A stretch of DNA of 63,480 bases, filler included, from an uncultured virus (IMG/VR IMGVR_UViG_2049941000_000426) (6 parts of one record of this genome joined end to end with filler, not necessarily neighbours in it), one strand, 5' to 3'. Positions 15,322 through 63,275 are shown, counted from the first letter of the whole stretch. The notes: generated by a model not told the origin, from the sequence alone. A program made the numbers and translations.

Positions 15322-15594
15322 ATGACACCGCAAGAGACCTTTAAGACATATACGGAAGCCTACAAGGAGGCCCGTGACTTCCAGACGGAGTACACGGCGC
15401 ATTCCATGAAGCCCTTTGTCGGCCCGAGGGAGTTCCTGTCCTTCTGGAAAAGCTTTCTAAAGCCGGCTCCGTCGGTGGGCTATGCCGACCCCGTCCCATT
15501 CGGGACAAAGCTGAAGGCTTTCTTCAGCAGGAATCCGACCGCTGTCATCAACGGAACGCCTGTTCAACCCAGTAGGACGTACGCGAAGAGATGA
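15322..15594 (+). CDS. Small protein with YKEA leader
   Basis: MTPQETFKTYTEAYKEA. Confidence 0.7.
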   Translation: MTPQETFKTYTEAYKEARDFQTEYTAHSMKPFVGPREFLSFWKSFLKPAPSVGYADPVPFGTKLKAFFSRNPTAVINGTPVQPSRTYAKR

Positions 15595-26838: not shown

Positions 26839-27030
26839 GAAAGCCCCCCTAGTCGACCTCTTCCATTGGCGCCATCATCATATCGGCGTGGTGGACCTTT
26901 CCTTTCTTCAGTAGATAAACCTCCGACATGANNNNNNNNNNNNNNNNNNNNNNNNNNNNNNNNNNNNNNNNNNNNTTAATTAATTAANNNNNNNNNNNNN
27001 NNNNNNNNNNNNNNNNNNNNNNNNNNNNNN

Positions 27031-27492
27031 NAGAGCCTGGAACATGTCACCGCCGAAGGCCTTGGCTTCGGGCATGAAGACGACGCCGATGGCTCGGACG
27101 CCGCCCATGAAGGCCAGACGTTCGGGGGAGACCGTCACGACGCTCTTCGTATTGAAGTAGAACGCGTCGATGACGATGTCCTTGTCCTCGATGGTCTGGT
27201 AGAGCTCCTGGTTGAAGACGAACAGGGCGCCTTTCTTCAGGAGGTCCTTCTGGGTGCGGATTTCAACATGGTTGACGACTTCCGCGATATCGGTGACGTC
27301 GACGGCTCCGTTATCGCCGAAGGAGAGGACGCGGTCCTCGTCGGTCTTGACGCCAAAGGCGCCGTCCGGGGTGACGAACACGGAACCGGGCACGAGGCTG
27401 CGGTTCAGGTTCTGGAACTTTTCGAACGGCGTGGCGCCGTCCGTCTTGACGGCAGCGTTCGGGGCCGTCGCCTTGGAGATTTCATCCATCAT
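27031..27492 (-). CDS. Hypothetical protein, 3' truncated
   Basis: AAGGAG RBS; strong codon bias. Confidence 0.7.
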
Positions 27493-35829: not shown

Positions 35830-36177
35830 NNNNNNNNNNGGGAAAGGAGGTGGTCGATGAAAATCCTTTTAACCAATGACTTCTGGGCCGAGATCGACGG
35901 CGAACGGCTGTTCGACATCTTCAAGCGGAACATCTTCGAGAACTCTAAGGAGCGGATGGGATGGACCGAGGAGGACGACGTCCCCGACGAGTATGTCTGG
36001 GAGGATATCGACCGAGCCTTCGACATCGCGTGGAAGACGTTCATCGACTCCCTGAANNNNNNNNNNTTCCCGTATTGAGGACATCATAGTCCACCTGATG
36101 GAATCTTTCACCGAGTCCGACAGGCGCCATGCGAAGCGCGAGCAGCTGTACGGCTCAAGGAGGTCAAAGAGAAATCA

Positions 36178-36498
36178 ATGAAAATCAAAGGATATAAGGC
36201 TTTCCGCGAGGACATGACGTGCGATCCGGATCCGAAGAATCCTTTCCGGTACGAAGTCGGGAAGATATACGAGATGCCGGATCACCCGATCCTCTGCGTC
36301 CGTGGATTCCATTTCTGCGGAAATGTCTCGGACTGCTACAACTACTACCCGACGACGGACAGGACGCCGATATGCGAAGTGGAGGCCGACGGGTGGCTGG
36401 AGTTCTCCGATGAGGCGCGAAGGACCAACGGAAGGTACGGGAAGATGGTGACCAACCGGATCACGATTCTACGACGCCTGACCAACGAAGAAGTCATA
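36178..36498 (+). CDS. YKAF...C..GFHFC-domain protein (DUF7666-like), partial
   Basis: KGYKAFREDMTC..FRYEVGKIY..LCVRGFHFC..ICEVEA..KMVTNRITILRRL. Confidence 0.75.
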
Positions 36499-42272: not shown

Positions 42273-43570
42273 CTGACCTCCTTTATCTTTATCTGGTCCA
42301 GCTCACCGTCGTCGAGCTCCTTTGACTTCTGACCGACCTGGATGAGATACCGGGGGTCGTCCGGGGTCTTGTCCAGACTGTCCTTGCCCATGTCGCTGTC
42401 GAGAAAGGCGACTTCAAGATCCTCGTGGTGGTCCATGAACCACGCCACCCACCAGGAGCTCGAGGCCTTGATGAAGGCCGGCTGGTCCTCGGCCCATGTG
42501 TACACGAGCGTTTCGCCGCCATAGTCCAGCCAGAACCCGTTCAACCGGGAGCTTGAAACAAAGGTGGCCACGATCGTCTTCCTNNNNNNNNNNNNNNNNN
42601 NNNNNNNNNNNNNNNNNNNNNNNNNNNTTAATTAATTAANNNNNNNNNNNNNNNNNNNNNNNNNNNNNNNNNNNNNNNNNNNNAGGATCCGATTTCGCGG
42701 ACGCCGTCGAGTTCTGGTATTCCAGCACGGTCGACGCCGAGCATATCTACGGACCCTTGGTGAAGAAGGGCGANNNNNNNNNNCGGATCCGATTTCGCGG
42801 ATGCGGTCGAGTTCTGGTATTCTAGCACGGTCGACGCCGAGCATATCTACGGACCCTTGGTGAAGAAGGGCGAGAAGGAGAAGGCCAAGATGTGGCTATG
42901 GGGATGCCGGCTGTACGACAATGAACAGGATGCGAAAAGGAGGTTCGGATAAGGAGAGGACCGATGACGATCAAGGAAAGAATTGAACAACTCTTCCCGG
43001 TGAACGAACGGACGCACAAGAACATCACCGACGGGGAGATGCGGTGGCTGCTGGAAAGGTGCTTCCTGCCGGGGCCGTTCCTGTGGACATGGGACTTCGA
43101 GGGAAGCCCGTACTACCGGCTGAACCACGGGCATGGCCAGTATGANNNNNNNNNNACCAGGGAAAGGCCATCCCTCCGCCCCGAGCGGGGTGAAGTCGCC
43201 TTCCACCGTGAAAGCGGGAATGTTGTTCCCGTTGATGTCGCCATGCCGGCAGAACTCGGCAAGACCCTTCACCGTCAGGATGTCGTGGTACTCGATGTCG
43301 AGCTCCCCTTCCGTGTCCANNNNNNNNNNGCCCTTGCCTTGTTCAATCTTGGTACGGTAGGAGGCCTGTGGGAGGTTGATAGTCACGTTCTGGAAACCGC
43401 AGGAGCGAATAGACTCAGGATGATTGAAAAGGTCTTCATCTATCTTAACCCTTAAACGACAACAACTTGCAACACTGACACTGTCCCGGTCGAACACAAA
43501 ATAGACCGATCCGTTGACCGCCGCGGTCATACAGGCGAAGTCGAAGACTTTCTTTTCCTCNNNNNNNNNN

Positions 43571-43774
43571 GTCGCCCTCCACCGTGAAAGCGGGAATGTT
43601 GTTCCCGTTGATGTCACCATGCCGGCAGAACTCGGCAAGACCCTGCACCGTCAGGATGTCGTGGTACTCGATGTCGAGCTCCCCTTCCGTGTCCATCCTG
43701 TTAAGACGGTCAAGAAGGGCCTTGCACTTCGCGCAGCCGTGCTTTCCCCACACATGCACTTTCAACTTGCTCAT
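43571..43774 (-). CDS. nrdH: NrdH/glutaredoxin-like redoxin, partial; allele at 43156..43319
   Basis: VWGKHGCAKC CxxC, NIP cis-Pro motif; ATGA-coupled to the nrdD stop. Confidence 0.7.
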
Positions 43775-46700
43775 TTGCCTGCCTCCATCACGCTGTAGTT
43801 TCCACGGTGACGGTCGACAAGCTCGCCGAACTGCTTTGACTTGTTCCACTGGGAAATTCGGCTGAAATAGCCCACGACGCGTGTCTCGGCCTCCACGTTG
43901 GAGGACCCGCAGTTCTCGCAGGTCTTCTTGATGCCCCTTGTCCCGTATCCGCAGTCCATGCAGTAGGTGAATTCGGGACTAAAGGTTATCTGTGCCGACT
44001 GGGTCCTCCGGAAGGTCTGCTCGACGATCTCGGAGATCGCGCCCGCCGAAGGGGTCTCCTCGCCGATGAAGGCATGGGTTATCGCTCCCGAGTCGATCAT
44101 CCCGTGGAAGGCCGCCTGGCGGACGATGCGTTCGACAAGCGGAACATTCGCGTAGGCCGGGATGTGGACGCTGTTGGTGTAGTATTCGTTCCCTTCCGAG
44201 CCGTTGACGATGTGTTTCGCCTGTTCAGGGAAATGGGCCAGATCGGAGCGTGCAAGACGTCTCGCCGCGGATTCGGCGGGGCTCTCCTCCAAGGTGAACG
44301 TGATGCCGTGCTCCTTCGTATACTCCTTGGCGCGGAGATTCATGTGGGCGATGACGGAAAGACCCCATGTCGTCAATTTCTCGTCCTCGTGCATGGACTT
44401 CCCGAACAGCTGTCGGCAGGCGTCATCGAGACCGATGAGGCCGATGATGTAGACGCACTTGTCCAAGTCGACATAGGGGCGTCCGTCGCAAGCCGGCTTT
44501 CCGATCTGCCACAAGGGCATGTTCGGCGCCGACATGAGGTTCGCGATGTGTTTCTTCTTTTGCAGATGGGCTTTCACCGCAAGGTCCATCGCCGCGTCGA
44601 TCTGGTCGGTGAAGAGCTTCCACGTCTCGGAGTCCACTTCGGGGTCTCCCTTGCCCTGCTCGATTTTCGTCCGGTAGGAGGCCTGCGGGAGGTTGATAGT
44701 CACGTTTTGAAAGCCTGCTGATCTAATGTTCTCCGGATGGATGAACAAATCCTTGTCCAGCTGGATGCGGAGCCGGCAGCAGCTACTTTGAGTGTAGCTT
44801 TCCCGGGCGAAAACAAAGTAGACGGAACCGTTCTTCGCGGCTATCTCACAGGCATAATCATAGACTTCCTTCTCCTTAGGATTGGTGAACGTTTCGTCAC
44901 AGACATGGAAGTCACACTTCGGAAATTCGAAGATGTGCCCGTTGGCGTCTCCTTCTCCCCATACGGTAAGAAGAGCTTTTGCGAATCTCTGGGTCTCTTC
45001 AGCGTAATCTGAATAACGCATGACATGTATCCAAGGCTCTTCCCGATATTCGAGCTTGCCGTCTTTTTCGGTGACTAGAATTCGATCNNNNNNNNNNCTT
45101 TGTCCGTCTTTCCGACAAGGAAAGGAGCGTAAAAAACATTCACGTAACCCAAGCCTAATGCGCCTGCATAGTAGGCCTGCATAGAAGCGAGGAATGTATT
45201 GATATGTCCGGTAAGAACAGAAGCGCTCTTGGCGGGCTTGGACACTGTATTGAGGTTGACCAGCCCCCTGAGACCATATTTCTTCAAATATTCAATGGAA
45301 TGGGACGAACAGTAAATACGGTGAGGGAAATTTGCGTCATGAATGTAAATCCTTCCAAATAAATGATTTACGACTACGTCCTCTGAAAAGACTGTATCAA
45401 AGGACCAGTTCTTGAGGATATATCCGGCAATAGACAGATTGATCGCCTCCGGGTTGTTCCCGGTGATGTTGCTATTCTCCTTGCTCTTGGAGTGCATCAG
45501 CCCGTCGATGTATTCCTTCTCAATGAAGTACCCCCTGTTGGAACTCATCCTAGCCTGTATCCCCTCGTAGGTCAGCTCGTTGTTGACCATTTCTATCACC
45601 AGATCGGACGAGACCGTTTNNNNNNNNNNAAGGGCCATGGCAAAACCCCTCGCCTCCTTCCCATAGTCCTTGTACCGCATGACATGCCAGCCCTCGGCCT
45701 CGTCAAACCAGTTCTTCCCGTCCTTATCCCTGAGAATGACCTCGTCCACGTGGCGTATCACCGAGTGGTACACCAGTTGGCGTTCACCGTCCACGACACG
45801 TTCATCCAAAGGAATGACATTTCCCCACGGTCCAAGGGCCATGTACTTTCCGCCGGGACCGATGGCTGGTACTTCACTCAAGGACTTCGGGATGCCCGTA
45901 TGGACATTGTAGTCCAAAAAGATCGTCTGGCCACCGCGCGAAAAAGCGTTCTGGGATCCGTTAAATATCATCTCCTGCGCAATCTGGCGGAGCTCTTTCT
46001 CCGTCTTGCCCACAAGAAGAGGCGCATAGAACACGTTGATATACCCCAGTCCCAGCGCCCCGGCGTAATACGCCTGCATGGAGGCCAGGAAAGTGTTCAG
46101 ATGGCCTGTCAGGACAGATGCGCTCTTGGCCGGCTTGGACACCGTGTTGAGATTTATCAGGCCCTTCAGACCGTACTTCTTAAGGTATTCGATAGAATGA
46201 CTACTACAGTATGTTCTTGTTATATAGCCCAGATCGTGCAAATAAATCTGCCCGAACTGGTGGGCATGTACGACATCATCTGAAAAGACATTGTCGAAAG
46301 CCCAATTCTTCAAAACATATTCGGACAGGGCAAGGTTTATCGCCTCCGGGTTGTTACCGACAAGATTGCTGTTCTCCTTGCTCTTGGAGTACATGAGACC
46401 GTCGACGAAATCCTTGTCAATGAAATAGCCCCTTCCGGAATTCATCCTTGCCTGGATTCCCTCGGAGGTCAGCTCGTTGTTGACCATTTCTATCACCAAA
46501 TCGGATGATACGGTCTGCAGCCCAGACTTGAGAATGGAGCGTTCCACCTTCTTGGCGATAGAAGGAGCCTTGTCCGGATCTGGGAGAATTCTCTCCAAAT
46601 CCTGTTCAAGACGAGCGCGATCCCATCCGCTCACCGTTCCCTTCTTCCGTCCTTCCGCAAGTAGCATCCCCTTGTCCGTAACGTCCACCTTATCGTCCTT

Positions 46701-47340
46701 CTTGTGGTTCAGGACCTTCAGGGCGTTGCGGGCTTTCTCACGCTCCTTCCGGTAGTNNNNNNNNNNGGCCTGACTTGAGAATAGACCGTTCCACCTTCTT
46801 GGCGATAGCCGGGGCCTTGTCCGGATCGGGCAGGATCTTCTCCAGGTCCTGTTCGAGACGGCTCCTGTCCCACCCGCTGACACGCTGGTCCTTTTTCGTT
46901 CCCTGGATCAGCATCTCCTTGTCCGTAACGTCCACCTTGTCGTCCTTCTTGTGGTTCAGGACCTTCAGGGCGTTGCGGGCCTTCTCACGCTCCTTCCGGT
47001 AGTTGGCGTACAGGTCGTGCAGCAGCTTCGCCTTCTCGTCCGTGTACGCCACCGGCCGGTCGTCCCAACGGCGCTGTATCGCGAACTCCACGGCGTCCTG
47101 GACATCCTCCAGTTTCGGGATGCGTGAACCGACCGTGTCCGGTTTCACATAGAAGTCACTTCCGTCGTAGTCGAGAAGGAACAGGACCTTCTCGGTCAGG
47201 TAACGGGAAACGTCGGTGTCGATTGGGCTTGCCAGAAGGGCGTTGGCCTCGGCAACGGCCCTTTCGATGGCGGTACGGATCTTCTCGGGGTTGAACTTCA
47301 CAAGCTTCCCCGAGCGCTTACGGAAGAATTCGATCTTCAT
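43771..47340 (-). CDS. nrdD: Anaerobic (class III) ribonucleotide reductase, assembled from overlapping allelic fragments
   Basis: N-terminal ATP cones, IYLHDL..YCSSHS, SSCCRL, EESPAES, YYTNS, CMDC/CENC Zn site, RVVGYFS glycyl-radical motif; another allele at 43330..43560. Confidence 0.93.
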
Positions 47341-47519
47341 GGGTTACCTCTGTATTTATGAAGCGCCCCGCCACCGGGAAACTTTCTCGGAACACGGCCG
47401 GGACACCTCATAAATATAAGGCATGTGAACGATCTTCGGTTTTGTTACCAAATGAGAATGATTATTCATTGATGTTGTTTTTTTATTTTTTTTTCATGTC
47501 CTAGATTGCTCTTTTCTTT

Positions 47520-47760
47520 TGTTACCGTATAGTACTTCCATGGAAGCGATTGGCTTCCGTATCACTCCGGTGTTGAAGGTTCCGTCCAGAGAGGCAAGCC
47601 CCGCTTGGAACGGGTAAAACACCGGGAGCGAACGCGAAAAATTGCACGATAACCAAGTGCATTCGCAGGGGCATGGGTCAACCCCATGCAATGGTAGATT
47701 CACCCACCCTGTTGAAACAGGGCGTAACTGTTAGCATTTGCTAACAGAAATGAATCGGCA
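47520..47760. ncRNA. Hairpin-dense intergenic region (candidate ncRNA or origin)
   Basis: Several nested inverted repeats, e.g. CTGTTAGC/GCTAACAG, CCCTGTT/AACAGGG, GCATGGG/CCCATGC, CCGGTGTT/AACACCGG. Confidence 0.35.
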
Positions 47761-48585
47761 TTACGGGTTCGTGTGATTCCTGACGATCTTCGGAAGGGGG
47801 AACGCGAACACAACGCCGTCCTTCGTCTGCTCCACTTTCTCAAGCCCGCCGAAGTTCTTGGCAACGATACCGAGACGTACGGCGTTGCCACGGGTAAATG
47901 GAAGATGAACCATCTCCATGAATTTGCGGATCGTCATCGGACAACGATCCTTGCTCTTCCAGTCAAGCTGGTTCAGCTTTTCGAACAGGATCTCGGGCGG
48001 GGTGACGGCGGTCGTCTTCCGGTCGTGGAGCGGGAATCCGATATGGGCGTCTCCGGTAAGGCGGAGATTGGCCTCCTCCTGCTCCCTCTGCTCGCGTTCC
48101 TTCGTCCGTGTCCACGTCATCATGGTCGGGGGAAGAAGGACCTCCTTGGCCGTCGAAACGGGCTGGCGGCCGAGGAACTTGAGAACGGAGTAGACAACCG
48201 TGTAGGCCGTGTCGGCGTCCTTGCAGTCAGCCAGTTCGCAGAGCGCGTCCTTCCGGTAGGGGACCCACTCGTCCCTCGGGCATTCCAGCCATGCGAGGGA
48301 GTTCCGAAGGACCTCAAGATTGTCGGTGAACTTGGGCAGCGCGTTGGCCGCCTTGGCGAAGGCCGCCCCTAGGATGTCCCCGAACGGACGGTGCTTTCTC
48401 GGCGCTACTGTAGGCTTCACGGGAATGATGACCGGGGAGGACGGGGCCACTGGCTGCGGGTCGTCCTCGCGCAGGGGTGTCAGGGAAAACAGGTCGCCTT
48501 TCTTCAGGAGCCTCGAGAACTTTGAGAACTCCTCGACCTCTTCCGGGGATATCTCCCTTTCAATGTGTAGTGTAATTTTAAACAT
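47761..48585 (-). CDS. Hypothetical protein (possible C-terminal winged helix)
   Basis: 274 aa; allele fragment at 112..183. Confidence 0.65.
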   Translation of the reverse strand: MFKITLHIEREISPEEVEEFSKFSRLLKKGDLFSLTPLREDDPQPVAPSSPVIIPVKPTVAPRKHRPFGDILGAAFAKAANALPKFTDNLEVLRNSLAWLECPRDEWVPYRKDALCELADCKDADTAYTVVYSVLKFLGRQPVSTAKEVLLPPTMMTWTRTKEREQREQEEANLRLTGDAHIGFPLHDRKTTAVTPPEILFEKLNQLDWKSKDRCPMTIRKFMEMVHLPFTRGNAVRLGIVAKNFGGLEKVEQTKDGVVFAFPLPKIVRNHTNP

Positions 48586-48626
48586 TTTTGACCTACTCCG
48601 ATTGTTGATTGTTGATTGTTAATTCT

Positions 48627-48833
48627 TCACTTCTTTACTTCATATAGAAAACCCTTGTGGCAGAAGCCGTACGTGTCGGATACAGCATCCCCCACAAGAT
48701 CCCCGAAGGCGTCCTCGTCCCCGGGATCATCCGGGTCGAGCCCGTCAGGGTCGACATCGATATCGAATTCATTGGGGAGATCGACGTCCTGTCCGTCGGT
48801 GTCCCACTCAATATTTGTCACATGAATAATCAT
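48627..48833 (-). CDS. Small highly acidic protein (I.WD..LP.E family)
   Basis: NIEWDTDG..LPNE..VSDTYGFCHKGF. Confidence 0.7.
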   Translation of the reverse strand: MIIHVTNIEWDTDGQDVDLPNEFDIDVDPDGLDPDDPGDEDAFGDLVGDAVSDTYGFCHKGFLYEVKK

Positions 48834-49375
48834 TTGCTCATCCCCTTGATGGCCTCTATTCCGCAGATCATCAAATCACCGGAGATATTCGAACCGAAAT
48901 GTCTTCCTATCCGGTCGACCAGCTCAGACAAAGCCTTTTTAAGACCGTCCACGTTTTCGGCCTCCGCATGGACATGAAAGTCAACAAGGGGCTTTTTGAT
49001 CGCCTGACCTGGCAGATTTCTCTTTAATTCGACTTTCCATTCCCCATTGATGAAATACCCGGACAAGGCTATCCTGTCGTGCTCCTCCAGAAGCGTCATA
49101 TCAGCCACGTCGAAATCAACGAAATGGTCAGACCTGGCGGACGGGTATTTCCGGTAAAGCTCCTCGATAATGATCTCGCCGAACTCGCATGGATCATCAT
49201 GTTCCTTTTCGTCCTCCCAAGGGCCGAAATCATTCGGATCGAAGGTGTCAAGGTGCTGGATGCAGCTCTCCTCGACAACGACTTCGTCCTCCTTGGGAAA
49301 CACCCCATACAATGGTTCGTTCAAATTGAACCCCCAGTTGATATTCTTCAGCTTCACTTTCCACTTACGTCTCAT
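48830..49375 (-). CDS. Hypothetical protein, N-terminal domain related to 48627
   Basis: KNINW..FPKE; coupled. Confidence 0.6.
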   Translation of the reverse strand: MRRKWKVKLKNINWGFNLNEPLYGVFPKEDEVVVEESCIQHLDTFDPNDFGPWEDEKEHDDPCEFGEIIIEELYRKYPSARSDHFVDFDVADMTLLEEHDRIALSGYFINGEWKVELKRNLPGQAIKKPLVDFHVHAEAENVDGLKKALSELVDRIGRHFGSNISGDLMICGIEAIKGMSK

Positions 49376-49390
49376 AATTTTTTCCTTCTA

Positions 49391-49414
49391 GATTCTTCAA
49401 CGCGTTGTAAAATC
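49391..49414. repeat. Conserved imperfect palindrome (copy 3)
   Basis: GATTCTTCAACGCGTTGTAAAATC. Confidence 0.65.
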
Positions 49415-49781
49415 AAAGAGCCGGTGGAACGTTCCACCCGCCCCNNNNNNNNNNNNNNNNNNNNNNNNNNNNNNNNNNNNNNNNNNNNNNNNNNNNNNNN
49501 NNNNNNNNNNNNNNNNNNNNNNNNNNNNNNNNNNNNNNNNNNNNNNNNNNNNNNNNNNNNNNNNNNNNNNNNNNNNNNNNNNNNNNNNNNNNNNNNNNNN
49601 NNNNNNNNNNNNNNNNNNNNNNNNNNNNNCTCGTGGACGCAATCCTCGCAGGAGGTCTGCAGATAATCAATGAGGTTGTCCTCGTTTTCCTTGAACGACC
49701 TCATGAGAGCGTCGAAGTTCGTTACAGGCTTCCTTTGACGGGCTTTCCTTTTCGCCTCCCCAGTGGTAGTCATGAAACAGC

Positions 49782-50237
49782 TCATGGCAGTCCGACCTCC
49801 TCCGGGGAGAGCGCTCCGGGCCAGTCCTGCCAGGTGTCGTGCATTCGTTTGATGTCCTCCTTGCGCACACCGTGCCTGTTGCGGTGTAGCGCCGTGTCAA
49901 CGGAGATAAGGGGCATGTCGTATACGACCAGCTGCTTGCCCTCCTTCAACGAGGCGTACAGGTAGCGGTTCCATACCCGCTCAACGTCTGCGTTGGTCGG
50001 AAGGACGTCCGCGTAGACGCAGTCCGGGCGCGTGACGCAGCTTCCCAGAAGCCCGACCATCATCAAGGCCTGGTCGACGGCGTCGGCGTAGCGCTCCGGC
50101 GTGTAGTCGTACTTCCCGTCCTTCACGAGGAGGGCGTCGGGCTCGACAAGAATCAGACCGCCCCTGTCGGCCAGCTTGTGGGCGAATGTGGATTTGCCGG
50201 ATCCCGGCAAACCACGAACAATGATTAGTTTCGGCAT
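49782..50237 (-). CDS. P-loop kinase (AAA_33/polynucleotide-kinase-like)
   Basis: LIIVRGLPGSGKSTFA, RN.HGV....I.RM...W. Confidence 0.85.
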   Translation of the reverse strand: MPKLIIVRGLPGSGKSTFAHKLADRGGLILVEPDALLVKDGKYDYTPERYADAVDQALMMVGLLGSCVTRPDCVYADVLPTNADVERVWNRYLYASLKEGKQLVVYDMPLISVDTALHRNRHGVRKEDIKRMHDTWQDWPGALSPEEVGLP

Positions 50238-50453
50238 CTATAAAACTCCGTTATCTATCTCTTGATTAAAACGTCCGACAAGACGTTTGAACGCCTCATG
50301 GACGCCCCTGGCGTACGCAAGATTAACGTCAGGATTCGGATCGATCGGGGTGGTTTTTATTTCCTCCAGCATCTTCCTGTCGAGTTCGACGACAATCCTG
50401 CACACCTCGTGAAAGACACGTTCCCCCTCCTGTAAAGCTTTTCTCGTTGTCAT
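50238..50453 (-). CDS. Small hypothetical protein
   Basis: Coupled ORF. Confidence 0.55.
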   Translation of the reverse strand: MTTRKALQEGERVFHEVCRIVVELDRKMLEEIKTTPIDPNPDVNLAYARGVHEAFKRLVGRFNQEIDNGVL

Positions 50454-51537
50454 ATCTTTCCTTCATTCTCGAGTTCCGCGAGACGTTTCGTCAATGTCAT
50501 CGCCATGGCGTTGACACCGTCGATGTAAGGTTTCCTGAAAGGGGACGGCGCGTTGTCCAGAAGCTCTTTGTGTATCTCAACGATAAGATCGCCGATTATC
50601 TGGTTCATGCGGTCCNNNNNNNNNNAACCCAGAACCTCGACAGAGTCCTTGCTCTCCCCTGAGAACTCTGGTACGCATCTCTCAGGAGGTCCATTATCGA
50701 AGCGGAACACTCCAGTTTCAATCCCATGGCCCCGAGGGGTTGATACGCCGGGTTCACCACGGGAATACCCGCCGTGATATGCTCATATTCACCGTCCATC
50801 AGGCATCCTCCTTTTTCTTGAATATGTACATGCCGCCTCGAGTCTCCCAATCGGACAAGGCCTTACAGACATTGCACNNNNNNNNNNNNNNNNNNNNNNN
50901 NNNNNNNNNNNNNNNNNNNNNNNNNNNNNNNNNNNNNNNNNNNNNNNNNNNNNNNNNNNNNNNNNNNNNNNNNNNNNNNNNNNNNNNNNNNNNNNNNNNN
51001 NNNNNNNNNNNNNNNNNNNNNNNNNNNNNNNNNNNNNNNNNNNNNNNNNNNNNNNNNNNNNNNNNNNNNNNNNNNNNNNNNNNNNNNNNNNNNNNNNNNN
51101 NNNNNNNNNNNNNNNNNNNNNNNNNNNNNNNNNNNNNNNNNNNNNNNNNNNNNNNNNNNNNNNNNNNNNNNNNNNNNNNNNNNNNNNNNNNNNNNNNNNN
51201 NNNNNNNNNNNNNNNNNNNNNNNNNNNNNNNNNNNNNNNNNNNNNNNNNNNNNNNNNNNNNNNNNNNNNNNNNNNNNNNNNNNNNNNNNNNNNNNNNNNN
51301 NNNNNNNNNNNNNNNNNNNNNNNNNNNNNNNNNNNNNNNNNNNNNNNNNNNNNNNNNNNNNNNNNNNNNNNNNNNNNNNNNNNNNNNNNNNNNNNNNNNN
51401 NNNNNNNNNNCCATGACAACGAACATCTCCCGGGGCAACTCGCGGAACGCCTTCTGCTCCTCCTCCGACAAATCGTCGTAGTCGTGGTCGTCCCACTCAA
51501 TATCCTCGATCCGTATCTTCAGATACATGGCCGCCTC

Positions 51538-52104
51538 CTATTTCAGCTTCAGGACCTTCCATCCTTTCTCCCGTGCGGTCTCTACAGTCATGCATTCCCC
51601 TTCGATGCAGTCATGCGGTCTTGACGGCGGAAGGGCCTCGCCGGGGAAGACGGCCGCCAGCAAAGGCTCGCCTTTCCCCCACTGCAGCTCCTCGCAATCG
51701 TCCTCGTAGATGGTGCCTTCGTACTCGACGATGGCCGTCACGGTCTTCGTCTTTCCGAAGTTGGACGGAACCCGAGGGTCCACCGGATTAACAAGAACGA
51801 GCGTCGGGTGGTCGCCGAGGGACTCGACCTTCACCGGAAGGTCTTGCGGGATATCTTCGAGAGAAACGGCCTTCAGCCTTCCGACGGGGGCGGTGTGGTT
51901 GTACTGGAAGATGGCGACTCCGTCCTTCGCCTCCTTCAGGAACCATACCTTGTCCGGATCCACCACGAACGAGAAAACCATCTCAAGGTTCTCTTCGTCA
52001 AACACGGATCCACGGGCCTCCGGGCCGACGTGGCCTGAAATGACGTCCAGGATCCAGGGACGGCCCTGTAGGCCGCCGCGACCGGGGCAGCTCATCGCGG
52101 CCTT
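51538..52104 (-). CDS. Hypothetical protein, 5' truncated
   Basis: Open frame ending in LAAVFPGEALPPS..WKVLKLK. Confidence 0.6.
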   Translation of the reverse strand, partial: KAAMSCPGRGGLQGRPWILDVISGHVGPEARGSVFDEENLEMVFSFVVDPDKVWFLKEAKDGVAIFQYNHTAPVGRLKAVSLEDIPQDLPVKVESLGDHPTLVLVNPVDPRVPSNFGKTKTVTAIVEYEGTIYEDDCEELQWGKGEPLLAAVFPGEALPPSRPHDCIEGECMTVETAREKGWKVLKLK

Positions 52105-52194
52105 NNNNNNNNNNGCACCTGCTTCTCCTCGGGCGTCCTGGCCTGCTGAATTGCGGTGATGTGCTTTTTGAATGACATTGTTTTTCCTCCTTTA

Positions 52195-52635
52195 CTAAAT
52201 TCCAAACGAGTTGTCGGTAAGATCCGGAAGGACGCCGTTTGTCACCTTGCGGACCTCCGTTTTCAGATAGCTTATGTAGAACAGAAGATCAACCAGGCAG
52301 TCCCTTGGGTCGTTCGCCGGTTTCGACAGCTGCTGGACCCTTCCAAAAGTGACCATGAGGGTCTGTTCAACCTCGGCCATCCACATGTCCTTGGGCTGCT
52401 TTCTGAAATACGGGTTGTCTGCAGGCGGAGCGACATAGACGACTCCGATACGGTGGGGCCCCTTGTCGAAGTCATCCATTATCTCGTAGACATACTTCTC
52501 AACAAGCCCACCATGGTTCGGGTACATCGGTTTGAAACCATGTTTCACGAGCCATTCGTAAGGCTCGGTGTCGGCCGTGAACACCTTGTCCAGTTCTTCG
52601 TAATTCGTTTTCCCTGCTTTAGTCTTTTTAACCAT
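52195..52635 (-). CDS. WLxxHGF-domain protein
   Basis: EWLVKHGF..DPRDCLVDLLFYI. Confidence 0.65.
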   Translation of the reverse strand: MVKKTKAGKTNYEELDKVFTADTEPYEWLVKHGFKPMYPNHGGLVEKYVYEIMDDFDKGPHRIGVVYVAPPADNPYFRKQPKDMWMAEVEQTLMVTFGRVQQLSKPANDPRDCLVDLLFYISYLKTEVRKVTNGVLPDLTDNSFGI

Positions 52636-53006
52636 GTTAAATCCCCTTTTCTAAATGTCTCTTAACTTGTCCTGAGTGACCCGGTACATATTGGCCTTCA
52701 CAAGCCGGTCGAGAAGAACCCGCCCGACGGCCAGGCGCACNNNNNNNNNNNNNNNNNNNNNNNNNNNNNNNNNNNNNNNNNNNNNNNNNNNNNNNNNNNN
52801 NNNNNNNNNNNNNNNNNNNNNNNNNNNNNNNNNNNNNNNNNNNNCTATGATGGCCTCCGAGATACGGGGCCAGTAGTCGTCCGAAATTGGACGATTAAGC
52901 CCTATCTCGGCAAGAATCATCTGCATGTACTCTTTCCTGATCATTTGTCCTCCTTTTTACTTCATTGCTAAACAAAAACGACACCGGTTACAGCCGTTGT
53001 CTTGAA

Positions 53007-53604
53007 TCAACGAAACAAACCGGACAACCACCCTAGGAACCCACCGCCCTTTTTCTTCCCCGCAGAGACAACGGGATGCGATTGGGCCGTCTCCGCAAAC
53101 GGGTACTCGAAAGCGAACCCGTTCCGTCCGCAGACATCCCTGATATTGTCGACAAGGCCGGTACAACGGGAAATCCGTGTTTCCTTGAACGTTCTCACAT
53201 AGGCTTCAGCTTCGTTAAAGACTCTCTCCAATTCAGAAGGAGACCAGCAATCCATGCTCACATGAATCCTCCCGGGAATCTCTTCCTCATATATGTCCAA
53301 CGCAAGAAAACCTCCATGGTAGGTGTCTAGCTGCATCCGTATAAGCCCTTTCTGCTCCGAAGCATCGGAAAAGCCAAAATGCCCCGCCTTCTCCAGCAGG
53401 GACGTCTTCATCGACAAGAAATCATCAACAAGGGACAGCAGGCCGCCGTACAGGAAAAAGTCCAGCACGTCTCTTCCGCAACAGGCTGTACCGGAACTAT
53501 GGATCATATGGTAATGCTCGTCTATGTCCACGTTTATGCAAACGGACCCGCCATCGAAAATCTGCAATGTATCATTATTCGAAAGACAATAAGTGACCAT
53601 TCCC
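53007..53604 (-). CDS. Hypothetical protein
   Basis: AAGGAG RBS before ATG 53604. Confidence 0.6.
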
Positions 53605-53635
53605 ATCGACACACTCCTTTCTGCTTCATTGCTAA

Positions 53636-53800
53636 ACAAAAGGGCGGCCCCCGCCGGATTGCGGGACCGCCCAACGAACTAAAGAAAAATTGGACCGGCG
53701 CATATAGCGACCGGTCCCTGTAAATAGGCTCTAACCATATTCCTGTTCTGACCGAGCCTTGTCAGAAAGGGGCGGACAAAAGAATTAACTCTCCTCCGTC
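53636..53800 (-). ncRNA. Candidate promoter-to-terminator small RNA with an H-type pseudoknot
   Basis: Promoter motif 53797..53833(-); TCTGAC-AAGGCTCG-GTCAGA loop pairs with downstream GAGCCT; ends in a GC stem plus T-tract. Confidence 0.4.
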
Positions 53801-53830
53801 ACTTTATTATTACGCATAAGGGGACTTGTT

Positions 53831-54313
53831 TTAGTCCCTGGCAAGAGCTTTCTTGTAGGACTCCTTGTCGACGAAATTATCGAGCGCACAGGTCCACAAG
53901 CTGGCATGCATGTCCTGTATGGTCCGGGCCATGATCGTTTCAAGCTGCTCCGTCACCGTCAGAACAGCCTGAGCCCTCTTGTCCATGTTGTTGAACAAGT
54001 AGCCCATCGTATAGAAACGCATAAGGGGCTTCCCTTCGACAAGTGTCTTCGGTGCCCAGGGGAAATCCTCCAGGGCGGTTGTGACAACCTCATGGGCCAG
54101 CTTAAGGGAACTGGACATGGGGTCAAAAGCCAGCTGGGCGTAACCGAAGCAAACATAGTTCGCACCCGGACAGGGAGGCTCCTGTTTCTCCGATATGTCG
54201 AGATTGAACCGGTTGTCCGGCGTGTCGATGAGCGTCCTGCAGAAAAGGGTATGCGGCCATCCCGACCAGTTATTTCCATCTTCAGCTTCAGCGAACTTTG
54301 TGAATTCCGTCAT
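53831..54313 (-). CDS. Hypothetical protein
   Basis: 160-aa ORF downstream of RNAP. Confidence 0.65.
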   Translation of the reverse strand: MTEFTKFAEAEDGNNWSGWPHTLFCRTLIDTPDNRFNLDISEKQEPPCPGANYVCFGYAQLAFDPMSSSLKLAHEVVTTALEDFPWAPKTLVEGKPLMRFYTMGYLFNNMDKRAQAVLTVTEQLETIMARTIQDMHASLWTCALDNFVDKESYKKALARD

Positions 54314-54344
54314 TTGTCATCTTCCTTGCTGTTGTGAGTTGCAT

Positions 54345-54376
54345 ATAAAAACCGCCGCCCGCCAGGACGGCGGTGT
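54345..54376 (-). terminator. Intrinsic terminator after the RNAP gene
   Basis: ACCGCCGTCC..GGGCGGCGGT-TTTTAT on the minus strand. Confidence 0.6.
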
Positions 54377-54408
54377 AAAGATACATACGGAACTCTATTT
54401 ATCCAGTC

Positions 54409-56582
54409 CTACTGGAGTTCCTTGATGATGATATTGTCGTCAACCTTTATCTTACCGGCGCGGTAGGCGGCCTTGGCCTCCTCGTAGGTGTTGAAGACGG
54501 CCTTGGGGGGAGCAGGTATCTTGCGGGATGAGAGGAAAGCACCAGAGATAAGTTCCTCCTGCATCTCAGGCATAGCCTTAAAATCACGAGCGGCGAGCTG
54601 GTTCTTACTTGGGGTCATCAGCCTATAAGCTTCTTCAACAGACTTATTAGATACAGGTACATAATATGTCATGACATCTCCGTCACTATCTGAGTTGTAA
54701 CCCTTTCCAACTAAAGGATTTAGCATCAAAACATTTCCTGCTATAAGTTTTGGTCTAAATGCCTGTACAGAATATTTATGTAATGCCGGAGCTCTAGTAG
54801 CTATCAATGGCCTTTCCGACATAACCTGTCTCATGGCCTCTTTCGCAGAAGGTGTCCTCTCTACAACAGACTTAGTCGCCTGCAATGGACTCATTCCACC
54901 CTGTACAAGTTTCCTAATCGTAAAATCTTTATATAGATCCCATGCCTGATTCTCCGGCATCCCTATCTCATCTAGACCTAGTCTGGGGTCAACATCAATG
55001 ACGCTCCTACCAGCGACATCCAGCTTGCCCCCTACGACAAGCCGCTGGAATCCGCCGCTGTTCCCTCCCACCAGCGTCTTCCCGTTTCTCCGGGTGATGA
55101 TGAGACCGTTGTCGGTGGTTACACAGTGAACGAAGCCGTCGTATTTCTCGAATGAGACGTCATTGGCCTTGAACCCCACTTCCCGTAGTCTCCGATCGTC
55201 GTCCATGGAGAGCATAGTCCCCTCCCCAAACCGGACGAAGGTTACGGTGAAAGCCTTTCTTGTATCCCAGAATCCATCCGGATCCTTCATGAGGAGACTG
55301 TGGTTCAAGGTAACCAGAGTATCCACATTCTCATTGCTGATACGGACCATGTCGCCTGTGTACTGCTCATGGGTTATGTCCTTCGGGTACTCATAGGAAA
55401 TCTCCAGCGATGACGGGTTGACCGTGGCGACCTTGAACTTCGCCTCGCGATATTCCTTGAAGGGGATCCAGCCGACCTCGGTGAGAATCTCGGTCTGGTC
55501 GTCGTGACACTTGGGGGAACCTTTCCCGAACACCCACTTCAGAAGCCCGCTGACACCGCTTTCCTTCAGCTTTGTGTCATTGGGTTCCGCCAGTCCAGTG
55601 ACAGCCCTGAAGGCGTCCGTGACTCTTTTACGGCCATATCCTAGCAGTTCGTCCGGAAGACCCGCTTCCTTCGCTTCCCTCAAGTCATCCCTCGCGTCGA
55701 GAAGCTCCTTGTACAGGTAGTTCGCGTCGGCCACCATGTTGAGGTCGCCGGAGCGGGTAATCCTTCTATAGCGCGGAGGAAGAACGGGAAGTTCGTCCAG
55801 CATGAACTGGTCGGGGGTTGCGTTGTGCTGTTTCATCGCCGAGGCCCAACGGAGAGTCTTGACAGCCTTGTCACGACGGGAAGCCGGACCGCTTCTGATG
55901 GTGTTCTTCGCGTTCTCAATCATATTGTCGAGGTTGAGCGAGGCGAGTTGCTTCCTTAAACCTTCTCCACCGGTCATTCCATTCGGGAGCCTCTTCTGAC
56001 CGGACAGGACATCGTCTAGTTCAGCTTTCTTCAGAGTCAGGAAATTACAGACCACATCGTCCATGATGGGGTTCAGGACAGGCTCATCCAGAGGAATGTA
56101 CGCCCACTGGTCGCCGTCGGGCCCGAAGATCGCCGGGTCGAAGAGGCCGCCCTTCATCGGAAGGAACTTCTTGTCGTCGTACGTCGAGGCGTTCTTCAGT
56201 TCGGTACGGGCAAGCTTGCGGACATCACCGTTCGTCAGGGCGAAAATATTCGTATTGTCGCCGTCCCTTGTCACATGGACGCCCGAGGCCTCCAAAGAGG
56301 CTAGGAAACGCTTGTAGATAAGAGGGGTGCCCGGCATGGAGGGGGTTCTTCCCATCTTGAAGTCACGCCAGAAATCGGTGTTCCTTTGTCCCTTGATGAG
56401 CTTCATGTCCTTCAGGACTTCAGAGGCCCCATGACCGGCGAAGGCACCGAGCACAAGACCACCGAGGGTCTTGGCGCCATCATGGCCGCCTGTGGCTGGT
56501 TGTTCATCAGAAGTATAGGAGCCCGTGGAGCGAGCGCCGCCCTTCGATTCGGAGGTGTGGTGGAACTTGGTAACATAGGAGT
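54409..56582 (-). CDS. rpoC: Phage RNA polymerase: beta C-terminus fused in frame to beta' N-terminal/catalytic part
   Basis: KFHH..KGGARSTGSY..QP..GAKTLG (beta) continuous with GGLFDPAIFG, LPVLPP.YR, GKLDVAGRSVI, RAPALH, YNSDSDGD (beta'). Confidence 0.88.
55060..55509 (-). mobile_element. Mini-intein (150 aa, no endonuclease) in the RNAP beta' region
   Basis: K|CHDDQTEILTEVGW...VTLNH...YDGFVHCVTTDNGLIITRRNGK...GN|S; Cys1, terminal Asn, Ser+1. Confidence 0.88.
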
Positions 56583-56592
56583 NNNNNNNNNN

Positions 56593-59533
56593 TCTCTGAG
56601 GTGTGGTGGAACTTTGTCACATAGGAGTTGCCCACGAAGATACCGGGAATGGTCTCTCCGGTTTCGGGATCTATGATGTCCTCACGGTCAGTAAGGCCGG
56701 CATCCTTTAGTTCTTTCTGCGCGAACTTAACAAGATCAGTACCGAAGCCCGGTAGCACATATCGTTTTCCTGTTTTCTCAGCCACCTTACCTAATGATGC
56801 TTCGATAAGTACGGCGCTATTCACGCGGCTGGCGATTCCGGTAGGGCTAAACATAATATCTATGATATGTCCGTCCTTGNNNNNNNNNNNNNNNNNNNNN
56901 NNNNNNNNNNNNNNNNNNNNNNNNNNNNNNNNNNNNNNNNNNNNNNNNNNNNNNNNNNNNNNNNNNNNNNNNNNNNNNNNNNNNNNNNNNNNNNNNNNNN
57001 NNNNNNNNNNNNNNNNNNNNNNNNNNNNNNNNNNNNNNNNNNNNNNNNNNNNNNNNNNNNNNNNNNNNNNNNNNNNNNNNNNNNNNNNNNNNNNNNNNNN
57101 NNNNNNNNNNNNNNNNNNNNNNNNNNNNNNNNNNNNNNNNNNNNNNNNNNNNNNNNNNNNNNNNNNNNNNNNNNNNNNNNNNNNNNNNNNNNNNNNNNNN
57201 NNNNNNNNNNNNNNNNNNNNNNNNNNNNNNNNNNNNNNNNNNNNNNNNNNNNNNNNNNNNNNNNNNNNNNNNNNNNNNNNNNNNNNNNNNNNNNNNNNNN
57301 NNNNNNNNNNNNNNNNNNNNNNNNNNNNNNNNNNNNNNNNNNNNNNNNNNNNNNNNNNNNNNNNNNNNNNNNNNNNNNNNNNNNNNNNNNNNNNNNNNNN
57401 NNNNNNNNNNNNNNNNNNNNNNNNNNNNNNNNNNNNNNNNNNNNNNNNNNNNNNNNNNNNNNNNNNNNNNNNNNNNNNNNNNNNNNNNNNNNNNNNNNNN
57501 NNNNNNNNNNNNNNNNNNNNNNNNNNNNNNNNNNNNNNNNNNNNNNNNNNNNNNNNNNNNNNNNNNNNNNNNNNNNNNNNNNNNNNNNNNNNNNNNNNNN
57601 NNNNNNNNNNNNNNNNNNNNNNNNNNNNNNNNNNNNNNNNNNNNNNNNNNNNNNNNNNNNNNNNNNNNNNNNNNNNNGGACTTCCGGTTTAGGGGGAAGT
57701 TGTTGTAAAGGGAATAGGAGCGTTTCGTTCCGTCGGCCTGGAGAATGGTTATGTCGTCCTTGGTGACCTTGACGACCTTTCCGGGCTGGTCGGCCCTTAC
57801 CGCGCCGAGGATATGGGAATAGGCCTCCTCCATGGACTTGCCGGAGCCATCCGGATCGAGGGACTGCACATAGGGGGCCATACGGTCCTTGATGGACATG
57901 GCCTGCGTCTGGTGCTTCTGGGCCATCAGAAGACGGCCGGCCTTGATACCGCTCTTGATCGGGACAAAGTTCGAGGTTGTCGCAAAAAGGGAGTCGCCGC
58001 TGGGAACAAAATAGGGAACCTGACTCTTGGGGAGATACTGGATGGAGTTTCCGACCATCGCCGGAATAAGAGTCGATTTGGAAGAGATATATTCCGGATA
58101 GCTGACAGGAACCTTGCTGGATTCCAAAGTCGATAAATATTCCTTCTGTCCAGTTCTTGCATTGATAAGCGGTGAGTACATCAATCCATCTGGCCCACGC
58201 ATAGCAGACTGGGCAATCTGGGTGTCCAATCCTACCCGGAGACTTTCGGGACTAGCGACCGGGTCGATGAATCCCTTGTAGGTGTTGTGCACCAGTCGTG
58301 CGGACATAGGAGCGGATTCAATGGAGCCGATGCCGCCTTCGCCCATTCGCGTGACCATCGTGGCACGCTTGTATGCGTCCAGGAGATTGGTCTCCTCAAT
58401 GGCCTGCGCCAGGTTGGACTCGTTGAACAGGCCGTCCACATATTTCGACAGGGGGGACGACGGGATCTTCTGGGCGTCACCGTACCGGCTGACACGCCAC
58501 AGGAGGTTCCTCAGAAGACCGCCGGCATCGAGCCGTACACGCTCGGAGATGAAGTCTGCCGGTCCGAAGAAGCGCTGGTTCTCCATGGAGTCACGGTTGT
58601 CGCCGGAGTGTTCGCCTTTCGCAAGGCCGATAAGNNNNNNNNNNGCGAGAAGAAGCTGGGGGTCTACCTTCGTATAAGCCGTCCCGAAGGTGGCCATCGT
58701 GTTGTCCGGATTGAGTTCTCCTCCTAGAACGTCCTTGGCCGCCTTCTCCCAGGGGTCGTTCGGGTCCTTCGGCTCGTCGGCCGCCGTCTTGGGCTTGTAC
58801 CAGCCGCCCTGCTTCAGGAAGGCGTCCTTGTTGACCTTGTACATCTCGTCGCCCCATGCCGCCTTCAGCTCATCGTCGGAGACACCGAGATGCTTCAACA
58901 AGGGGTAAAGGTCGTAGTTCCTTGTCCCGACCGTCACCCGGAAGACCGGTTTGGCGGGGTTGAGCTGCATCATGACCGTGTTGCCCGTTCCCGGACGTGC
59001 GTTGATGTGAGCCTTCGCTATGTTGTCCTCGCCCATCCTTGTATAGACACCGGGGACTAGACGCATCTGGAGGGGAAGGGTNNNNNNNNNNATACCTGCT
59101 GACACGCCATAGGAGGTTCCTTAGAAGACCGCCCGCGTCAAGCCGTACACGCTCGGATATGAAGTCTGCCGGTCCAAAGAAGCGCTGGTTCTCCATGGAG
59201 TCGCGGTTGTCGCCGGAATGCTCTCCTTTCGCAAGGCCGATAAGACGCTTACTGGATGCGAGAAGAAGCTGCGGGTCGACCTTGGTGTAGGCCGTCCCGA
59301 AGGTGGCCATCGNNNNNNNNNNAGTTGTTATAAAGGGAGTAGGAGCGTTTCGTTCCGTCAGCCTGGAGAACCGTGATGTCGTCCTTGGTCACCTTGACAA
59401 CCTTCCCGGGCTGGTCTGCACGGACGGCACCCAGGATATGGGAATAGGCCTCCTCCATGGACTTGCCCGATCCGTCCGGGTCTAGGGACTGCACATAGGG
59501 GGCCATACGGTCCTTGATGGACATGGCCTGCGT
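56593..59533 (-). CDS. rpoB: Phage RNA polymerase beta-like region (fragments, two alleles, large gap)
   Basis: RDSMENQRF, TRMGEGGI..ARLVH..GFIDPVASPES.RVGL, RLLMAQKHQTQA, SPTGIASRVN, IFVGNSY. Confidence 0.85.
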
Positions 59534-59633
59534 NNNNNNNNNNNNNNNNNNNNNNNNNNNNNNNNNNNNNNNNNNNNTTAATTAATTAANNNNNNNNNNN
59601 NNNNNNNNNNNNNNNNNNNNNNNNNNNNNNNNN

Positions 59634-62384: not shown

Positions 62385-63275
62385 AGATGGCGGACTGCTC
62401 GGCCGCTGTCGCACTGTTGGCCGCGGAAGTTTCACTGGCGGCCGCGTTCTGTTCGGATGTCTTGGCCTTGCCTTCGGAGGCGAGAGCGGCCGCTGCCGAG
62501 ACAGCTGCGGCACCTGCTGATCCGGATGCGGAGTTCTTGTATGACAACGCGTTCGCCTCGGACTGCGCGGCGTTCTGCTCGGAGGTCTTGGCCTTGCCTT
62601 CGGAGGCAAGCGCGGCAGCAGCCGATGCGGCTGCTTCGCTCTCACTTGTAGCGGCGTTCAACTCGCTCTGGGCGGCCTCGCCCGCCGACGTCGCGGCGTC
62701 ACGAGCGGAGCCGGCGGCTTCACCGGCTGAGGTGGCGGCGGCCGTTTCAGAATCAGCCGCGTTCACCTCGGACGCATGTGCCTCGACCGCGCTTGCGGCA
62801 GCGTCCGCGGCGCTTCCGGCGGCCGCCACCNNNNNNNNNNNNNNNNNNNNNNNNNNNNNNNNNNNNNNNNNNNNNNNNNNNNNNNNNNNNNNNNNNNNNN
62901 NNNNNNNNNNNNNNNNNNNNNNNNNNNNNNNNNNNNNNNNNNNNNNNNNNNNNNNNNNNNNNNNNNNNNNNNNNNNNNNNNNNNNNNNNNNNNNNNNNNN
63001 NNNNNNNNNNNNNNNNNNNNNNNNNNNNNNNNNNNNNNNNNNNNNNNNNNNNNNNNNNNNNNNNNNNNNNNNNNNNNNNNNNNNGGCTTTCTGCTCGGAG
63101 AGGGCTGCGGCATTTTCACTTGCCTTCGCATGCTGCTCTGATGTCAGAGCCTCCGAGGCGCTCCGGGCGGCATTCTCCGCCTGGCGTCGGGCCTCCTCGG
63201 CGGAACCGCCTCCCTGGCTTGCGGCGGCTTTGGCCTCTTCCATGTAGTATTTTGAGTTATCTGTATCTTCTCCCT
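62385..63275 (-). CDS. Tail fibre N-terminal Ala/Ser-rich coiled-coil repeats (allelic fragments)
   Basis: Repeated SEQNAAASE / ALASEGKAKTSE; DNSKYYMEEAK. Confidence 0.75.

Follow-up and report, generated by a model that had tools for sequence, protein, structure and literature searches.

A probable gene for a fused beta-beta-prime RNA polymerase chain, with a predicted mini-intein, in a large uncultivated bovine gut phage

The sequence analysed here, called the window, is a stretch of 63,480 bases from an uncultured virus (IMG/VR IMGVR_UViG_2049941000_000426). It is a draft pseudo-molecule with about 80 N-runs, mostly 10-N scaffold gaps, and represents part of a roughly 200-kb genome. On the minus strand of the scaffold spanning 42684-59533 lies a gene for an RNA polymerase (RNAP) chain in which beta continues into the N-terminal half of beta-prime. 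An earlier description made without database searches, the sequence-only reading, had presented 54409-59533 as an open reading frame (ORF) for a minimal fused enzyme, with continuity assumed across the gap at 56880-57677.

The downstream part of the gene, P0003, is a single open frame of 723 codons that runs on the minus strand from 56580 to 54412 without stops and is closed by a TAG codon at 54411-54409. Residues 108-161, 200-325 and 503-719 aligned to positions 31-80, 191-316 and 342-562 of a bacterial beta-prime (8i23_D, E 6e-50). The Pfam model of the double-psi barrel, Rpb1_2, was matched at 2.4e-23 (83.7 bits, cut-off 25.3) and Rpb1_1 at 2.1e-8 (34.3 bits, under its cut-off of 39.7), and the barrel part also matched phrog_25354 (4.1e-50). 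L001 and L002, two IMG/VR contigs that do not differ over 22 kb and derive from records of 205 kb (G001) and 113 kb, encode one fused ORF of 1,875 residues that is 82% identical to P0003 residues 1-357, has two beta inteins that the window lacks and keeps the canonical NADFDGD loop. Residues 1-110 of P0003 (56251-56580, minus strand) lie ahead of the part matched to beta-prime and show 83-89% identity to the C-terminal beta segment of the relatives' fused ORFs. Beta runs directly into the beta-prime N-terminal part (residues 111-357, 55510-56250, minus strand, placed by Rpb1_1 and the PDB alignment), in frame and with neither stop nor linker, as the sequence-only reading had described.

At the position where beta-prime carries its Zn ribbon (56130-56089, minus strand), only the four residues DGDQ were found between IFGP and WAYIPL, with no Cys, and the proposed absence of the Zn-binding domain was thus confirmed. 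Residues 508-723 (54412-55059, minus strand) comprise the double-psi barrel, the catalytic loop and an 88-residue tail, and the chain breaks off near residue 562 of the 8i23_D beta-prime, with no Zn ribbon, bridge helix or trigger loop. When the structure of P0003 was predicted, a step that the sequence-only reading had called for, the model had a predicted local distance difference test score (pLDDT) of 84.5, and its best fold matches were free beta-prime front halves from cyanobacteria and plastids (8gzh_D, E 8e-29; 9dvs_D; 9epc_D), with bacterial beta-prime next.

The rest of beta is preserved in three pieces, all on the minus strand. The piece next to P0003 (P0004, 95 residues, 56594-56878) matched Pfam Rpb2_6 at 6.5e-13 and has no intein where L001 carries its second beta intein. 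The middle part (P0001, 319 residues, 57678-58634) matched Rpb2_3 (3.8e-6) and phrog_24349 (1.2e-11), was 72% identical to L001 residues 743-939 and also lacks an intein at a site where L001 has one. The N-terminal region (P0002, 145 residues, 58645-59081) showed, taken together with P0001, 81% identity to residues 123-402 of the L001 ORF, and the gene goes on upstream, outside the window. A contig loose end past 59081 reads in frame by hand translation, with 8 of 10 residues as in L001. The KTAA tetrapeptide, which had been considered a linker and a hint of packaging in the virion, is encoded at 58790-58779 and corresponds to residue 214 of 1875 in L001, where it is conserved. It is not a linker and, as it lies inside the N-terminal part of beta, it says nothing on packaging.

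The region is interrupted by 10-N gaps at 56583-92, 58635-44, 59082-91 and 59313-22 and by an N-run of 798 bases inside beta (56880-57677). These were compared with Logan contigs from four public runs of one bovine gut metagenome sample, built with a different assembler, which reproduce 54300-55554 (one 3,923-nt contig with 0 differences) and give a depth for the phage of about 47-70x in the sample. The 56583-92 gap was crossed by these contigs in two ways, from 56541 to 56593 (plus 5 nt) and from 56572 to 56619, both in frame by our own arithmetic; this gap is an overlap artefact whose flanks are duplicated with strain variants. In L001, the stretch opposite the 798-N run takes up about 200 codons, with 199 residues separating the flanking motifs. 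Contig ends enter it in frame from both sides, with 8 of 10 and 7 of 10 residues as in L001 by hand translation, and no Logan contig from the four runs covers or bridges it. The continuity that had been assumed across this run was thus not confirmed. The length of the run was rejected as an exact measure, since its flanks would then be one base out of frame.

At the upstream end, 59092-59312 and 59323-59533 were identified by blastn, and by tblastn against L001, as variant copies of 58491-58700 and 57700-57910. Both are misplaced strain-variant copies of internal segments (59092-59533, minus strand) that lie outside the reading frame, and the contig loose ends at 59092 and 59323 read onward as the internal segments do. 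Therefore, the upper limit of the gene span given before was wrong, and 54409-59533 is not a single continuous ORF in the window. The gene itself extends past 59081 by about 116 further upstream codons that the window lacks.

Within beta-prime, a 150-residue insert (55060-55509, minus strand) separates GKGSPK from SGGFQR, two flanks that are contiguous in L001. It had been overlooked when the gene was described as minimal. The insert starts at C358, contains a TLNH block B (T424-H427) and ends in a Gly-Asn pair with N507, after which S508 follows (P0003 numbering). Its model had a pLDDT of 95.2 and gave 6zgq as the top fold match, with a template modelling score of 0.83 and a root-mean-square deviation of 2.4 Å; there were 46 PDB matches at E<=1e-3 and, among the matches listed, all were intein, Hint or BIL domains. 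The fold, Cys1, the TxxH block, the terminal Asn and the following Ser are shared with mini-inteins such as AceL NrdHF (6zgq), Mtu RecA and DnaX, from which it differs by a Gly in place of the usual penultimate His, a Cys in block F and an unlike sequence. By its predicted Hint fold and these sequence marks, the insert is classed as a class-1-like mini-intein, and splicing is predicted. The window thereby adds a candidate mini-intein at a second conserved beta-prime site.

The catalytic loop (54676-54696, minus strand) reads NSDSDGD and not the canonical NADFDGD, with the three Asp and the Gly retained and a Val as the next residue. No variant of this motif was listed in the Logan contigs of the four runs, and its description with three Asp was upheld. 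Between the motif and the stop there are 88 residues, so that the chain ends before the bridge helix, and the stop is followed by an intrinsic-terminator-like hairpin (54374-54351, minus strand) with a 10-bp stem containing 8 G-C pairs, a loop of 4 and then a T-run.

To place these features in a wider context, related proteins were collected by a HMMER scan of cluster representatives at 50% identity, which gave 9,714 matches at E<=1e-3, 1,472 of them at E<=1e-30. The family figures refer to the best 150 of the 9,714 matches unless stated otherwise; all had E<1e-118 and lengths of 442-3,350 residues, and 138 of the 150 reached at least 1,300 residues. The fused junction aligned in 151 segments from these 150 representatives, and in none of the 151 did the Zn-ribbon site contain more than one Cys. 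Motif counts were taken from the 118 representatives that matched the motif pattern, the other 32 being left out. The chain ended 84-97 residues after DGD in 88 of these 118, and the motif appeared as ADFDGD (52), MDFDGD (23), LDFDGD (8) and 17 further variants, with ADSDGD, SDHDGD and SDNDGD among them, each found once. It was preceded by N, G, A, S or T. Across the family, NADFDGD thus varies at positions 2 and 4 (A and F), whereas D631, D633 and G634 were invariant in alignment A1.

Since these four striking features are shared by relatives, the fusion, the absent Zn ribbon, the early end and the variable loop are the family norm, with none of them unique to the window. The sequence-only reading had taken the fusion, the loss of the Zn ribbon and the end of the chain about 88 residues after the motif as distinctive of this gene, a view that the survey does not sustain; the frame end and the terminator themselves were confirmed. 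NSDSDGD lies within the family range and is best regarded as a tolerated variant in an RNAP family in which DxDGD alone is fixed. In this sense, it illustrates how far the 'invariant' NADFDGD loop can drift while DxDGD is retained.

Inserts at or beside the intein site were present in 37 of the 150 representatives, five of 149-165 residues and 32 of 286-377 residues, and the other 113 had none. All 37 are bounded by C(Y/H)D and GN, with Ser or Thr as the next residue, and they occupy three neighbouring points of one loop. In alignment A2, with 18 family inteins, C1, T67, H70, G149 and N150 were invariant and the Cys in block F was near-invariant.

These data bear on the possibility that the window holds a decaying or inactive copy, because of the Ser substitutions in the loop or of an intein that does not splice for want of its penultimate His. 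The motif is indeed non-canonical at two positions, the penultimate residue of the intein is Gly, and no match of its sequence to known inteins was detected. However, the frame runs for 723 codons without a stop, the Gly-Asn end is invariant in 18 of 18 aligned family inteins, motif positions 2 and 4 vary in many full-length members, and the phage is abundant in the sample (about 47-70x). Decay is therefore considered very improbable, and the gene is very probably functional.

A feature of a different kind was found around the active site. In P0003 residues 541-660 (54960-54601, minus strand), the GC content at third codon positions (GC3) was 0.20-0.50, compared with 0.53-0.87 in the remaining gene and with 0.73-0.90 in the homologous stretch of L001. 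Identity to the closest relatives fell from 79-95% in the beta C-terminal and beta-prime N-terminal segments to 60-74% in this patch, with unchanged nearest neighbours, and a search of IMG/VR with the patch protein found no relative. The low-GC3 patch is the sole feature particular to this window among those compared.

Such a patch, together with NSDSDGD, could be produced by the assembly of two co-occurring phages into a chimera and so not correspond to a real allele. The strain-mixed scaffold, in which N-runs are numerous, flanks are duplicated with variants and variant pieces are misplaced, the sharp fall of GC3 over about 360 nt and the lack of a close patch relative in IMG/VR would all fit this explanation. 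In contrast, the 3,923-nt Logan contig runs through the patch and across its two borders with 0 differences and at the depth of its flanks (47x), and the three further runs agree. In addition, the frame is open with the conserved RAPALH and DxDGD intact, and in one representative, P0010, the same intein occurs together with a sister motif, SSDHDGD, after which VMTYYVPVS is read. A chimera is considered improbable because Logan contigs cross both borders, although slightly less so than decay. The simplest reading is that the patch would have come by recombination from a relative that is unsampled and lower in GC, and it is thus a candidate for such a tract at the active site.

The second half of beta-prime was searched for in the window by tblastn with the C-half of a relative and was absent from its 63 kb. 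A tblastn search with the sigma-like ORF of a relative gave nothing under E 0.97, and no sigma or RNAP family beyond the RNAP gene itself was found by Pfam in 83 window ORFs. In G001 (205 kb, CheckV 94%), the rear half of beta-prime is a 763-residue ORF about 70 kb from the fused ORF that matches positions 619-1088 of phrog_25354. The same genome has a 244-residue sigma-like ORF (phrog_351, 3.2e-12), with colinear sub-threshold matches to Pfam regions 2, 3 and 4. The alpha subunit (PF01000) was not found in G001 (94% complete) or in G002 (60% complete).

The closest cultured relatives were Salmonella phage Arash (OQ632216) and Vibrio phages D69, D181 and D148, which are similar to it. Arash gp206 (1,525 residues, annotated as 'subunit beta') aligned to P0003 residues 1-720 at about 29% identity, with 87 residues between its ADYDGD and the end of the chain, and the rear half is encoded by a separate gene, gp216 (606 residues). 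The fused chain of Arash thus ends at the same point as that of the window, and its portal gene lies just upstream, as in L001, where an ORF 2 kb upstream of the fused ORF resembles the Arash portal (25% identity, E 4e-44). The motif differs, ADYDGD in Arash versus NSDSDGD here, and the available sections of the Arash paper report no intein (PMC10585845). In the record and in those same sections, the chains are named just beta and beta-prime, with the fusion unmentioned (PMC10585845). According to the mass spectrometry data given there, Gp206 was the most-detected protein of the virion (3,516 spectra), accompanied by Gp216 (1,210) and by the sigma-like Gp10 (467) (PMC10585845). In one cultured member, both RNAP chains are thus abundant in the virion. 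Packaging, which the sequence-only reading had suggested from KTAA, is plausible for the window phage on the strength of these spectra and not of that motif; in the family, it is known only for Arash (PMC10585845, as far as its available sections go).

The two separate rear-half genes also bear on whether the fused chain could be a self-sufficient, single-chain minimal RNAP with no partner and with no bridge helix or trigger loop. No beta-prime C-half was found in the window, and single-chain two-barrel RNAPs do exist, namely YonO and the RNAP of crAss-like phages (PMC7481178, available text). Against this, G001 and Arash, the two relatives whose genomes are complete or nearly so, both encode the C-half, gp216 was detected together with gp206 in Arash virions (PMC10585845, available sections), and the window is only a part of a genome of about 200 kb. 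A single-chain enzyme is regarded as highly unlikely, and the proposal of a differently partitioned two-barrel RNAP with its C-half encoded elsewhere was borne out in these relatives, by the 763-residue ORF of G001 and by Arash gp216.

The layout was compared with those of cellular enzymes. The beta-prime of cyanobacteria and plastids is also split (gamma/RpoC1 plus RpoC2), with the catalytic loop in the front half and, in the rear one, the bridge helix and the trigger loop, as here. That front half keeps the Zn ribbon. It is also a free chain not fused to beta, unlike the window chain, and the cut lies further downstream, after 611-620 residues versus about 460 beta-prime residues in the window chain when the intein is discounted. 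Natural rpoB-rpoC fusions, in which a single polypeptide links the C-terminus of beta to the N-terminus of beta-prime, occur in Helicobacter and Wolbachia. These fusions contain a complete beta-prime and belong to cellular genomes, whereas the beta-prime of the window is cut after the catalytic barrel.

Among phages, the phiKZ/AR9 enzymes, used as comparator in the sequence-only reading, share with the window gene a two-barrel RNAP of a large phage with a divided beta-prime. A virion-packaged form exists in that group, as stated in the available parts of two sources (PMC7598289, PMC12908238). The window gene could accordingly be taken for a phiKZ/AR9-type non-canonical multisubunit RNAP that is merely cut differently: it belongs to a large phage with its own RNAP, the beta-prime split falls near the same region, and weak PHROG matches named 'RNA polymerase beta subunit' were obtained (phrog_2987, 4.6e-11; phrog_2986, 6.5e-5). 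However, the bacterial-type matches were far stronger (Rpb1_2 2.4e-23, PDB E 6e-50, phrog_25354 4e-50), sequence similarity to phiKZ/AR9 being much weaker than to bacterial-type beta-prime. Beta is unsplit and fused here, while phiKZ-type enzymes are described, in the available part of the source, as having 4-5 polypeptides, a beta that is also split and no sigma-70-type factor (PMC7598289), and a sigma-70-like protein is present in the relatives of the window. Furthermore, no Pseudomonas or Bacillus appeared among the matches listed by organism name (four further categories were not itemised). Membership of the phiKZ type was rejected for its weaker similarity and different subunit plan, there being very little likelihood of it, and phiKZ-like RNAPs are not the appropriate comparator for a protein much closer to bacterial-type beta-prime.

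A further comparison is provided by the 'multimeric RNAP-encoding Caudovirales' (mReC), 97 contigs with beta and beta-prime that form a clade apart from cells (Weinheimer & Aylward 2020, PMC7481178, available text). These are metagenomic contigs, some of more than 200 kb, from habitats that include host-associated ones, and their beta and beta-prime are recognisable with cellular COG models (PMC7481178). The RNAP family of the window is probably this clade. NADFDG is termed highly conserved in that work (PMC7481178), whereas the A and F positions vary in the family of the window. In its main text, 'fused' or 'fusion' is used only for crAssphage and the words 'intein', 'split', 'sigma' and 'virion' are absent; the supplementary figures may hold gene maps (PMC7481178). 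No description of a fused-and-split RNAP layout in phages was found in the full-text literature searched.

Taking these data together, we are confident, short of certainty, that the locus is a real gene for a fused beta-beta-prime-N chain of a phage RNAP and that the following explanation holds as a whole. The chain consists of all of beta fused seamlessly to the N-half of beta-prime, with a clamp lacking the Zn ribbon, the double-psi barrel and the Mg-binding DxDGD loop, in a large, uncultivated phage from a bovine gut metagenome whose nearest assembled relative has 205 kb. To be active, the 150-residue mini-intein that interrupts a conserved beta-prime motif would have to splice out, and the chain would have to pair with a second one that is encoded elsewhere, namely the rear half of beta-prime, which bears the bridge helix and the trigger loop. 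By analogy with the relatives, the resulting two-chain core would work with a phage sigma-like factor and without alpha, and would be packaged in the virion, so that phage genes could be transcribed without the polymerase of the host.

Several observations weigh against this explanation. The first 116 or so codons and about 200 internal codons under the N-run are missing, so this copy shows no intact full-length frame, and the 798-N length, if exact, sets the two flanking frames one base apart. The four runs represent one sample, which may be the window's own source, leaving the NSDSDGD codons without independent support. In the intein, Gly506 replaces the His ahead of the terminal Asn, and the insert had no meaningful sequence match in Pfam intein models or PDB chains. 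The window has neither the C-half nor a sigma gene, and the picture of a two-chain enzyme that depends on sigma is drawn from relatives with 29-82% identity. Finally, no biochemistry or structure for any member of the family, and thus no biochemical test, was found in the literature searched.

The fused and split layout is already normal in a large, little-studied phage family of which the window is a further member. This family would build a bacterial-type RNAP from two unusually cut chains, without a Zn ribbon and apparently without alpha. Being a fragmentary and strain-mixed copy, the window adds little to that picture.

Further inserts were observed in the RNAP genes of relatives. In L001:12040-14361 (identical in L002) and L011:11560-13803, a split insert lies exactly between DxDGD and the next residue, which in such relatives is Thr in every case. 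The first ORF ends 21 (L001) or 24 (L011) residues past DGD, and the second, of 706 or 713 residues, matches LAGLIDADG_3 (5.8e-7) and ends in ...LSN|TMTYYVPV plus the normal 88-residue tail. The spacer between the two ORFs of L001 is short and carries TTGACA-17-TATAGT. Representatives P0007 and P0012 end likewise, and the arrangement of a 21-24-residue N-part with a separately promoted C-part occurs in at least three lineages. An in-frame insert was present in 28 of the 118 representatives (588-661 residues after DGD), terminating in SN|T or QD|T, and its first residue is often a non-nucleophile (S 13, Q 7, E 2, D 2; L, A, Y and G once each). This post-DGD insert may represent a split intein of natural origin, whose N-part is very short and whose C-part bears the endonuclease, or its presence may denote a three-chain enzyme.

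In P0008, the representative closest to the window in the beta C-terminal and beta-prime N-terminal segments (88-95% identity), another insert of about 530 residues (residues ~1340-1900) interrupts the motif itself: NADFDG is followed by N-C-V-D-Y-D-T-E..., and the insert ends ...W-D-TMTYYVPVS. The catalytic loop has therefore at least two insertion points. The rear half of G001 (L004:1414-3705) shows, as read off its translation, an apparent mini-intein bounded by Cys...Asn|Ser inside the trigger-loop region, so that the RNAP genes of G001 hold four insert elements: this one in the trigger loop, another after DGD and a further two in beta.

The window allele has no insert after DGD. As a speculative possibility, and a doubtful one, this insert-free allele might have been gained by gene conversion from a lower-GC relative and be resistant to homing, with the traffic of inteins and endonucleases diversifying, in this family, a NADFDGD loop that is otherwise near-universal.

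Regarding the remainder of the window, five N44-TTAATTAATTAA-N44 joints at 6356-6455, 7542-7641, 26932-27031, 42584-42683 and 59534-59633 chain separate scaffolds and, since these are merely chained, gene order across them is uninformative. This applies to a tail-fibre-like ORF at 62386-62829, seemingly 'upstream' of the RNAP gene, which sits beyond the last joint. Pfam and PHROG scans of 83 and 26 window ORFs, respectively, gave mostly no match. The few matches suit a large phage and include an anaerobic ribonucleotide reductase, an HNH endonuclease and ligase-like and tail-fibre-like pieces.

The anaerobic ribonucleotide reductase (NrdD with ATP-cone; 43774-47343, minus strand) is present as four pieces separated by 10-N gaps. 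Two overlapping NrdD pieces both match profile positions 1-120/170, pointing again to strain-variant duplicates, and the L001 homologue bears LAGLIDADG inteins. An ORF for an HNH/NUMOD4 homing endonuclease was found at 15576-16520 (plus strand); its C-terminal part weakly resembles UvrD_C, and the endonuclease may be inserted in, or lie beside, a helicase gene. On different scaffolds, two DUF7666 ORFs, at 4269-4925 (minus strand) and 36079-36498 (plus strand), and an LPD28 ('large polyvalent protein') ORF, at 5278-5715 (minus strand), were also detected.

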